From: Candidatus Udaeobacter sp.
GTDB lineage: Bacteria > Verrucomicrobiota > Verrucomicrobiia > Chthoniobacterales > UBA10450
Reading direction: 5' to 3'
DNA length: 40,574 nt
Assembly (NCBI GenBank): GCA_036270025.1
Contig: DATBDI010000456.1
Location: forward strand, 1-40,574
Part shown: positions 21,960 through 22,862 of the stretch, piece by piece
How positions within the stretch are numbered: position 1 is the first letter of the stretch
Layout: each line of letters begins with the position of its first letter
Made by a program: the position numbers and the translations under genes
Notes under the pieces: generated by a model
What the model was told of the DNA's origin: nothing
The model's database searches: none
What the model saw: the letters and a program-made list of their open reading frames with translations, nothing else

Positions 21960-22862
21960 TCAGATCTTTAAGATCTCTCCATTCTCCGAGAACCCACAGG
22001 GCCACGGTAGTGCCTTGGGACAGCGTTCGCGGACTTGGTCCTCTACGAAGTTGAACTGCTTTTGCAGACTCTGACAGCATTCCTCGCTTGTTTTGCTAGA
22101 GCGGGTCGCGCACTGATCCCTGAGCAGGTTTTGAAGACAACGGTCCTCTGTATTGTACGCGTTACATTCAGTCCAGTCGTCTATGTGGTTCCAATACTCG
22201 ATCCATTTCTCCCGGCATTTATTACGTCCGTCCACCGTGGAAGCATTTTGAATACAACGCCCGTATCGCTCACAACACAGAGTCATGTCTTCTACATGTT
22301 GGTCTTCGTGCTGCTCGACACAGTTGCCTGCACAGTGCTCTTCGAACACACTCTTTTCGACAATGCCTCTCTCAGTATTACACGCCGCAACACCCAGAGG
22401 CCTCCTGTAGAGTAACTGTTCATCTTCTGAGGAAGACTCTTCCATTGCGCACCTGTATTTCAGTTTCGTGTCGAGCTGAGAAATTCGGTGCTCAGCACTT
22501 TTCTGACGGAACCGCCCGTGGTGGAAGCTTTCCTGCGTGGAATGAATTCCCATCTTGCTGAAGTCGTGGCCGAAGCGCGGCTCCATGAAGGCACGTGTGC
22601 CCGGGTCCAGGGGCTGACCGGAGGAGCGCAGCACTTCGTGGACGATAGGATGCACATCCGAACGTTGAGAGTTGAAGGTTGGGAGTTGAGTGGATGTATC
22701 GAAATTCCGGGGTTTTCGCTGCAGTCGTTTCTTGCGACACTCTTCACACTCGCCTGTCGGGCCAGGCGTGCCGCCGCAGGCGCACTTGCGTTGGAGCAGG
22801 CCGCCACGCGCCGACATCATAGCCGGCGGCGATCGTTTCGGCTTTGTCGTCCGTTCAATCAT
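21960..22862 (-). CDS. Truncated DUF4157 N-terminal module (no HExxH half) fused to a Cys-rich C-terminal domain; putative eCIS cargo
   Basis: ARGGLLQRKCACGGTPGPTGECEECRKKRLQRK and IVHEVLRSSGQPLDPGTRAFMEPRFGHDFSKMGIHS, then a roughly 190-aa A/T-rich-encoded region with about 15 Cys and HEDQH. The ATG overlaps the upstream stop (ATGA). Confidence 0.8.
   Translation of the reverse strand: MIERTTKPKRSPPAMMSARGGLLQRKCACGGTPGPTGECEECRKKRLQRKPRNFDTSTQLPTFNSQRSDVHPIVHEVLRSSGQPLDPGTRAFMEPRFGHDFSKMGIHSTQESFHHGRFRQKSAEHRISQLDTKLKYRCAMEESSSEDEQLLYRRPLGVAACNTERGIVEKSVFEEHCAGNCVEQHEDQHVEDMTLCCERYGRCIQNASTVDGRNKCREKWIEYWNHIDDWTECNAYNTEDRCLQNLLRDQCATRSSKTSEECCQSLQKQFNFVEDQVRERCPKALPWPCGFSENGEILKI

Follow-up and report, generated by a model that had tools for sequence, protein, structure and literature searches.

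What does an effector of an extracellular contractile injection system (eCIS) carry when the catalytic half of its DUF4157 module is missing? The question is raised by a gene for a 300-residue protein (21960..22862, minus strand; an intact open reading frame (ORF), taken from the ORF list and its translation) in a 40,574-nucleotide (nt) contig of Candidatus Udaeobacter sp. (GenBank assembly GCA_036270025.1, contig DATBDI010000456.1), the whole of which is referred to below as the window. The gene sits inside a long minus-strand eCIS operon, between the gene for the AAA+ ATPase (23630..25813) and genes for tube-like and baseplate proteins. We conclude from sequence, with moderate confidence, that its product is a cargo toxin loaded into the eCIS, probably a disulfide-stapled metallopeptidase. 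The plan of such effectors, a modular leader followed by a swappable tip, is already known from eCIS and polymorphic toxins; what is new is that the tip is an undescribed domain family without detectable structural neighbour, together with two undescribed partner families.

A first-pass annotation of the window had noted that the protein keeps the leader and the FMEPRFGHDF block of its paralogs and lacks the catalytic half of DUF4157. The Pfam match bears this out: the profile of eCIS_core (PF13699, formerly DUF4157) is matched over positions 1-28 of 79 only, at 20.1 bits against a gathering score of 22, and the matching fragment (residues 84-111, PIVHEVLRS...FMEPRFGHDFSKMGIHS; 22530..22613, minus strand) is devoid of HExxH. 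HExxHxxQ, which would be expected after an AYT..G.D.VF hairpin, is absent from residues 111-150, and the only HExxH of the protein belongs to the unrelated C-terminal domain. Three paralogs in the window (943..3306, 18651..20795 and 20728..21840) match PF13699 over positions 1-77, with 106-113 bits, and contain LAHELTHxIQQ. The first-pass annotation had credited four other copies with this segment; three of them do have it, but the fourth has no HExxH inside the window and is probably an effector interrupted by the window start, with leader motifs at about 49-340 (minus strand). Leaders reduced to an FGHDFxxVxV block without HExxH proved common in the family when N-termini were inspected by eye, and the truncated-DUF4157 leader thus appears as a recurrent architecture, not as local decay.

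The C-terminal part of the protein contains 15 cysteines (at 138, 161, 177, 181, 196, 197, 203, 216, 233, 242, 251, 262, 263, 281 and 289), two CC pairs among them, and HEDQH at residues 185-189 (22296..22310, minus strand), all as first described. An exhaustive HMMER search of 1.84 billion cluster representatives (clusters at 50% identity) retrieved 188 representatives with this domain at E<1e-3, 60 of them at E<1e-10. A word-indexed homolog search with the same region returned 4 relatives only, and the family is visible only to the exhaustive search. The homologous unit is about 145 residues long and corresponds to residues ~150-300 (150-300 at 21963..22415, minus strand). The picture of a one-off payload is therefore not tenable, as the domain is found in at least 188 cluster representatives and also at the tip of Rhs toxins. 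By these searches the C-terminal ~150 residues constitute an unannotated toxin-domain family that spans at least 188 clusters. When the domain and 64 members were scanned against Pfam and NCBIfam, only scattered chance matches resulted (DUF19, metallothionein, XopAH), a profile search of the PDB with the domain gave no match at E<=10, and the relatives carry no precomputed Pfam annotation across the region. No counterpart was found in Pfam, NCBIfam, the PDB or BFVD by hidden Markov model (HMM) scans and Foldseek, so that the description of the fold as one without known match stands and no housekeeping domain accounts for the region.

Conservation within the family was counted over 152 proteins. 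H185, E186 and H189 are each present in 151 of 151 members, D192, three positions after HEDQH, in 128 of 151, and in the following ECNAY segment E232 (22167..22169, minus strand; a putative third metal ligand) is found in 144 of 150, A235 in 148 of 150 and Y236 in 127 of 150. The HEDQH segment, which the first-pass annotation had mentioned as no more than a curiosity, is accordingly an invariant HExxH, a putative metal-binding and catalytic motif, and because it is followed by a conserved glutamate on the next helix the payload itself is likely to be a metalloenzyme. About 14 cysteines are conserved across the family. Two of these, C203 and C216, occur together in 95 proteins, are both lacking in 56 and never occur singly, which is the behaviour expected of a disulfide pair. 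The window copy and 24 of the 25 related loci examined retain all 14 cysteines and every one of the H-E-H-D-E-A-Y positions.

An AlphaFold2 model of the domain, built on an alignment of 64 sequences (A2), has a mean predicted local distance difference test (pLDDT) score of 95.3 and a predicted template modelling score (pTM) of 0.88. In domain numbering, it consists of a beta-hairpin (8-13 and 18-23) followed by three long helices (32-57, 61-103 and 111-134), the first of which bears HExxH at 36-40 and the second the conserved glutamate at 83; in protein numbering, HExxH falls in the predicted helix 181-206 (helix 1) and E232, within ExxAY, on helix 210-252 (helix 2). By this secondary structure, positions 36/40 and 83 are equidistant from the turn between the two helices (58-60), so they would be expected to come face to face. 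In gluzincins, the glutamate that serves as third ligand lies in an ExxA[D/Y]-type motif on the helix that follows HExxH. The motifs of the present domain, HExxH(xxD) and then ExxA[Y] on the next helix, appear to follow this gluzincin logic on an unrecognised scaffold, and the trailing EQEAD of DUF4157 likewise reads as ExxAD. Descent from DUF4157 was nevertheless rejected: hhalign against a 26-sequence DUF4157 alignment gave a probability of 3.3% over 17 columns round HExxH only. By the model and these comparisons, the domain is neither a recognisable zincin nor a diverged DUF4157.

Most family members are proteins of 200-300 residues in which the domain is C-terminal, behind eCIS-type leaders with motifs such as LLQRKCACGG.., GNQAVxRLL and EQEADRVA. 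In P0039, P0049 and P0060 it stands after a complete eCIS_core, and in five long proteins (P0013, P0015, P0019, P0020 and P0071) before a complete eCIS_core and a long C-terminal region; P0071 also includes a thioredoxin domain, and P0020 an OmpA domain. P0107 combines Malectin, RHS repeats and the Cys-rich domain. In many further cluster representatives the end of an Rhs core (..RWxxRDPxG..) precedes the domain; these, like the copy in locus L038, are C-terminal tips of Rhs/YD proteins. Genome and metagenome scans with 12 closer sequences recovered 28 loci; in the longer ones the toxin gene mostly adjoins genes for an ATPase, Pvc16, a baseplate protein and DUF4157 effectors (in L001, L004, L014, L017, L018, L020 and others, genes for the ATPase, Pvc16 and DUF4157 effectors). 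Named genomes that carry the domain are a metagenome-assembled genome (MAG) of Pyrinomonadaceae and one of Methylococcales. The public DNA sequencing runs that contain the sequence of the window's effector gene are soil metagenomes.

Two families of putative partner proteins are encoded beside the toxin in other loci. In three independent Rhs contexts (L009, L010/L011 and L038), the next gene downstream, which overlaps the toxin gene by 4 nt in L010/L011 and L038, encodes a protein of 215-242 residues (L009 5922..6569; L011 1124..1819; L038 2034..2762). These proteins have no Pfam match, form one homologous family (25-30% identity, E 1e-11 to 1e-14) and begin with a signal peptide or lipobox. 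Sec or lipoprotein signals are also present on three members of the toxin-domain family itself (P0082, P0083 and P0096), and a fourth Rhs context has a 102-residue lipoprotein encoded downstream (L039 804..1112). The exported partners suggest action in the envelope. The second family comprises proteins of about 73 residues without signal peptide, encoded directly 3' of the toxin gene in about eight eCIS-type loci (L022, L024-L029, L031 and L034/L035). A search that started from one of them found 27 relatives, all unannotated; one (L040) is encoded just 3' of a 340-codon gene bearing the Cys-rich HExxH domain, and the L039 lipoprotein matches the HMM of the family at E 1e-3. PepSY, the inhibitory propeptide domain of M4 metallopeptidases, is the top weak Pfam match in 15 of the 27 members, with a best E of 3e-4. 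A PepSY-like partner is independent, though weak, support for a peptidase, and we regard the ~73-residue proteins as candidates for inhibition of, or immunity to, the toxin domain. Their cytoplasmic location in eCIS loci suggests that the producer, too, has to restrain the enzyme or keep it in a loadable state. The DUF8243 gene upstream of the window's effector gene, a 102-residue and a 179-residue protein gene and the short orf53 (see below) were tried as conserved toxin partners and rejected, none being homologous to neighbours of the relatives.

Is the gene intact, or is it on its way out? The ratio of non-synonymous to synonymous substitution rates (dN/dS), computed between the window gene and its 90% relative in L007, is 0.19 in the domain (13 synonymous and 11 non-synonymous changes), 0.12 in the leader and 0.26 for the whole gene. 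The variable linker (residues 112-149; 22416..22529, minus strand; pLDDT below 60) has a ratio of 0.95 and differs from L007 by an indel of 15 codons. The 90% relative (L007/L008) also has a leader in frame upstream, though of different sequence, and in the 58% relative P0003, from the eCIS locus L001, leader and domain form one ORF. Because of these ratios and the intact frames in both relatives, the gene is judged not to be a pseudogene and not to be decaying, an outcome that the first-pass annotation had left to be checked. Public gene calls take an internal methionine as start and give a protein of 208 residues (MEPRF...).

The region downstream of the leader appears to have been acquired as a cassette. 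In blastn comparisons with L007, 22477..21781 is 91% identical and 22589..22532 is 88% identical, and the leader upstream cannot be aligned; the portable cassette common to the window and the L007/L008 locus thus covers 21781..22589 (minus strand). Synonymous divergence (dS) from L007 is 0.16 in the domain against about 3 in the leader. The A/T-richer C-terminal DNA that had been remarked upon is real: the GC content is 0.508 in residues 112-300, against 0.601 in the leader and 0.565 across the window, the sliding minimum being 0.487, and the lower value of the cassette fits import from elsewhere. Cassette and leader join at the FMEPRFGHDF block, and the alignments show this block to be a remnant of DUF4157 that marks the recombination junction of the cassette with the local leader. 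In P0003 the junction lies elsewhere, after ..LAYTAS, so fusions into DUF4157 took place at least twice.

The cassette extends past the stop codon of the effector gene. The gap of 182 nt before the ATG of the next effector gene had been described as a spacer; its length is as reported, but it is not empty, since it holds a conserved ORF of 53 codons, orf53 (21774..21935, minus strand), which is what remains of a CIS tube-like gene's 5' end. Its conceptual translation aligns from Met1 with the tube-like protein of the window (17399..18046) at 34% identity (E 2e-6) and is nearer to the products of other tube genes, with 57% identity to that of L001 and 50% to those of L027/L028. A full tube gene lies 3' of the toxin gene in L025, L027 and L028, after the toxin and its small partner. 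As a tube-gene remnant inside the cassette, orf53 gives the supposed spacer the look of a recombination scar. It is conserved in L005-L008, and its stop codon overlaps the ATG of the next effector gene.

The leader itself (residues 1-111; 22530..22862, minus strand) is locus-specific, mostly disordered and presumed to be the loading sequence. Its nt identity with the leaders of two window paralogs is ~78%, and, as said, it is unalignable with that of L007. In a full-length AlphaFold model, residues 1-150 are mostly disordered, with pLDDT below 60 outside residues 25-50. The DUF4157 fragment has pLDDT below 50 and is undocked from the Cys-rich domain; reconstitution of a zincin by packing of the fragment on that domain was rejected on this ground. 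In AlgoCIS, loading needs the disordered N-terminal domain but not DUF4157, and the N-terminal domains are system-specific (bioRxiv 10.64898/2026.05.27.728243), which the kinship of the local leader with those of its neighbours fits. The toxicity of Cgo1 is independent of the DUF4157 metalloprotease motif (PMC11297309). The suggestion of the first-pass annotation that the N-terminal part serves loading rather than proteolysis is consistent with the AlgoCIS work and with the disordered, undocked model. A four-cysteine knuckle, CxCGG...CxxC (residues 27-42; 22737..22784, minus strand), is common to two paralogs in the window and many leaders of the family and has pLDDT 71-86, with a short helix at 40-47.

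Several observations on the leaders stand apart from the toxin. The CxCGG(x8-9)CxxC knuckle recurs in three effector leaders of the window (22737..22784, about 20595..20642 and about 21643..21690, minus strand), is the sole part of the leader modelled with moderate confidence and may be a zinc knuckle with a role in loading. Stand-alone pieces of DUF4157, RFAHDFSR..V and YEQEADR..EQVMR, are found in the leaders at about 3000..3112 and about 49..340 (minus strand), which belong to the 943..3306 effector and to the further effector interrupted by the window start; it seems that leaders reuse fragments of DUF4157 as motifs. Upstream of the 90% relative, a gene (L007 3..791) encodes another effector whose DUF4157 ends before HExxH (...RVHTDAQATDSAREVKAPAMTGEPG...) and is followed by a different C-terminal domain, which indicates that truncated DUF4157 fusions are not confined to the Cys-rich toxin.

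Taken as an eCIS-loaded metallopeptidase toxin, the protein would work as follows. Residues 1 to ~110, the disordered and locus-specific leader, would direct AAA+-dependent loading into the tube without a DUF4157 core. Residues ~150-300 would be the payload, a beta-hairpin and then three long helices, with about seven disulfides as their probable staples. A metal ion would be bound by H185 and H189 (helix 1) and by E232 (on helix 2, which is antiparallel to it), E186 would act as general base, and the likeliest activity would be metal-dependent hydrolysis of peptide bonds. Judging from the exported partners paired with Rhs toxins, the target would lie in the bacterial envelope or periplasm, and the small cytoplasmic PepSY-like partner of other eCIS loci would presumably act in the producer as inhibitor or holdase. 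A bolder version, which we regard as doubtful, makes the domain a new minimal metalloprotease fold, a three-helix bundle with HExxH...E and about seven disulfides, that is active only after oxidative folding outside the cytoplasm, the eCIS delivering a compartment-gated toxin to the periplasm of diderm bacteria, and makes the short FMEPRFGHDF and EQEADR fragments of leaders functional recombination or recognition modules, not debris.

A number of results weigh against a metallopeptidase toxin of this kind. Foldseek searches of the PDB and BFVD gave nothing significant (best E 0.7-1.3, template modelling score below 0.4, generic helical bundles), and the zincin fold, with its mixed sheet, backing helix and active-site helix, was unrecognisable in them; the hhalign alignment with DUF4157, at its probability of 3.3%, likewise covers the HExxH turn alone. 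The metal site and the disulfides are derived from motif spacing, helix assignment and covariation. The PepSY similarity of the ~73-residue family is under the Pfam gathering score, and neither partner family accompanies the effector gene in the window. In the five long proteins with the domain N-terminal to a full DUF4157, it is not a terminal tip. A cytoplasmic partner in eCIS loci fits poorly with folding in an oxidising compartment only, and it is not fully reconciled with the envelope signal of the Rhs partners. Finally, none of the public RNA sequencing runs contains the sequence of the effector gene.

The domain might instead have another role. DUF4157, with its signature HExxHxxQ...E, has been proposed to be a releasing peptidase (Zhang et al. 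2012, PMC3482391), and the Cys-rich HExxH domain, with its parallel signature HExxHxxD...ExxAY, might be an accessory or processing module that replaces the lost half and, while cargo is being delivered or afterwards, cuts or matures it (its own chain or those of the paralogs). It substitutes precisely for the absent half, and in the five long proteins a full DUF4157 and a long C-terminal region come after it. We nevertheless think such a role quite unlikely, since the domain is usually the last one of a 200-300-residue protein, with nothing further to release, hhalign detects nothing in common with DUF4157 outside the motif, and its occurrence as an Rhs tip with immunity-like next genes is a toxin signature. 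The long amphipathic helices, the very high cysteine content, the lack of a match to the zincin fold and the absence of catalytic evidence would also suit a non-enzymatic binding or membrane-active module, stabilised by disulfides or metal, in which HExxH holds a structural metal only. This, too, appears unlikely: E186, which would be the general base and not a ligand, is conserved with both histidines in 151 of 151 members, E232 and A235 are nearly invariant in a pattern typical of catalytic zincin sites, and the partner is PepSY-like.

The state of the cysteines is a separate matter. They could be metal ligands, for zinc or Fe-S clusters, in a domain that folds and acts in the reducing cytoplasm of the producer (if uninhibited) and of the target; the cytoplasm is where eCIS cargo is produced, the eCIS-locus partner has no signal peptide, and the 12 cysteines left without the C203/C216 pair would in principle provide three Cys4 sites. 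However, the domain has no CxxC knuckles, and its cysteines are spread along the helices with two CC doublets, a distribution typical of disulfide-stapled helical proteins. In addition, C203 and C216 are strictly gained and lost as a pair, the Rhs-locus partners are exported, as are by their signals P0082, P0083 and P0096, and fusions to thioredoxin (P0071) and OmpA (P0020) exist, so we give this explanation only a small share of belief. It is highly improbable that the gene is what a decaying DUF4157 effector has left behind, with a C-terminal tail that does not belong there. The truncated DUF4157 module, the neutral linker with its indel, the internal start chosen by gene callers and the lack of the sequence in RNA runs would be in keeping with decay, but the whole frame, leader included, is intact in the 90% and 58% relatives, domain and leader are under purifying constraint (dN/dS 0.19 and 0.12), all 14 cysteines and the H-E-H-D-E-A-Y positions are preserved, and the protein belongs to a large conserved family. 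We therefore retain the eCIS-loaded toxin, probably a disulfide-stapled metallopeptidase, as the preferred reading.

The protein resembles and departs from several known systems. Like the PF13699 effectors ('PVC-metallopeptidase' toxins; Cgo1 and Cgo2 of AlgoCIS), it is encoded in an eCIS operon and follows a plan in which a variable C-terminal effector domain comes after a disordered N-terminal one, and with the co-encoded DUF4157 effectors it shares the leader, CxCGG..CxxC, PIVHEVLRS.. and FMEPRFGHDF. Unlike them, it has no HExxHxxQ core, matches profile positions 1-28 of 79 only and ends in a domain that is non-homologous by hhalign, its motifs being parallel ones (HExxHxxD...ExxAY versus HExxHxxQ...ExxAD). 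With the gluzincins (clan MA(E); thermolysin, neprilysin and the M48/M56 minigluzincins), it shares the HExxH helix, the glutamate on the next helix and, in the model, a beta-hairpin ahead of the active-site helix; in contrast to them, the domain has no backing helix, only two strands, ~14 conserved cysteines and a length of ~145 residues, and profile searches and Foldseek detect no similarity in sequence or fold. Zincin-like tips such as Tox-MPTase1-5, HopH1/NleD-like and ALF-MPTase (PMC3482391) are similar in carrying HExxH at the C-terminus of Rhs and PVC/eCIS proteins, but their Pfam models are not matched by the present family, which is Cys-rich and has partners of its own. The HExxH toxin T6EC12 of a type VI secretion system (T6SS; bioRxiv 10.64898/2026.09.28.754971) differs in motif spacing, its aspartate and glutamate lying at +7 and +36 from the second histidine.

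Membership of the Lipocone superfamily, with its Min-Wnt, TelC and SAA-like toxin tips, was considered and rejected, because three helices with HExxH...E stand against a four-helix core with a histidine on H2 and an aspartate on H4. The conserved polar residues of the window domain are on helices 1 and 2 only, and Foldseek against the PDB was insignificant. Structures of the Lipocone superfamily should be present in the PDB. Lipocone/Min-Wnt toxin tips have BamE-like immunity proteins (Burroughs et al. 2025, PMC12419801), and they are similar to the present family in being soluble helical tips of polymorphic toxins, accompanied by immunity proteins that are small and exported; the relatives of Wnt, too, are Cys-rich (PMC12419801).

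For an oxidising target compartment there may be a parallel. Some T6SS toxins, made in a reducing cytoplasm and delivered by a contractile machine, are reportedly matured by oxidation in the target periplasm. According to Mariano et al. (2018, PMC5792426), some T6SS effectors, namely Ssp2 and Ssp4 of Serratia, need DsbA of the target cell; they are a possible working analogy only, being non-homologous and delivered by a T6SS rather than an eCIS.

In about half of the predicted eCIS effectors, DUF4157 is the sole annotated domain (Danov et al. 2024, PMC11297309). One such unannotated payload is now defined as a sizeable family with a confident model, an invariant motif of catalytic type and two candidate partner families. 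The locus also illustrates how repertoires may diversify, a portable toxin cassette having been grafted on a locus-specific leader at FMEPRFGHDF with a tube-gene fragment as scar. As the domain is common to eCIS and Rhs toxins, effector discovery in either system informs the other. If the disulfide and periplasm reading is true, it would bear on the compartment that eCIS particles reach in bacterial targets, and it would provide engineers of eCIS delivery tools with a natural leader that works without a DUF4157 core.

The remainder of the operon was assigned from translations read by eye and homology between loci, with Pfam runs on the window itself giving the tube-like and T4_baseplate matches only. 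All genes of the operon are on the minus strand. Translation and homology identify the sheath gene (29519..31207), the tube gene (28973..29503), a Pvc16-like cap gene (25810..27165) and the AAA+ ATPase gene already mentioned, and the Pfam run a T4_baseplate-like gene (28229..28963) and the second tube-like gene (17399..18046). Genes for spike, PAAR, gp25-like and baseplate proteins, again from translation and homology between loci, follow beyond the latter, further down the operon. A scan for promoters and terminators found nothing beyond the shuffled background. Immediately upstream of the sheath gene, a gene at 31868..33304 encodes a sigma-54-dependent activator with GAFTGA and an AAA+ domain, which may regulate the eCIS operon.

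The ATG of the effector gene shares ATGA with the stop of the ORF upstream, which comprises 160 codons (22859..23341, minus strand) and is thereby translationally coupled to it. The product of this ORF has a precomputed Pfam assignment to PF26731 (DUF8243) and zinc-ribbon-like CxxC...CxxC motifs, and it is an inconstant neighbour of the toxin elsewhere. Near the distal end of the operon, between a tail-fibre-like gene and the last DUF4157 effector gene, a 365-residue protein (3323..4420, minus strand) shows weak M10/astacin matches and HELGHVLGMEHEH, a metzincin-type motif. The mechanical ORFs 18651..20795 and 20728..21840 (minus strand) share 68 nt; their true starts are likely to be the ATG of METTLRAQ... 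(about 20723) and that of MNRLLPIK... (about 21777). The effector of 370 residues among them combines DUF4157 with DUF6973.

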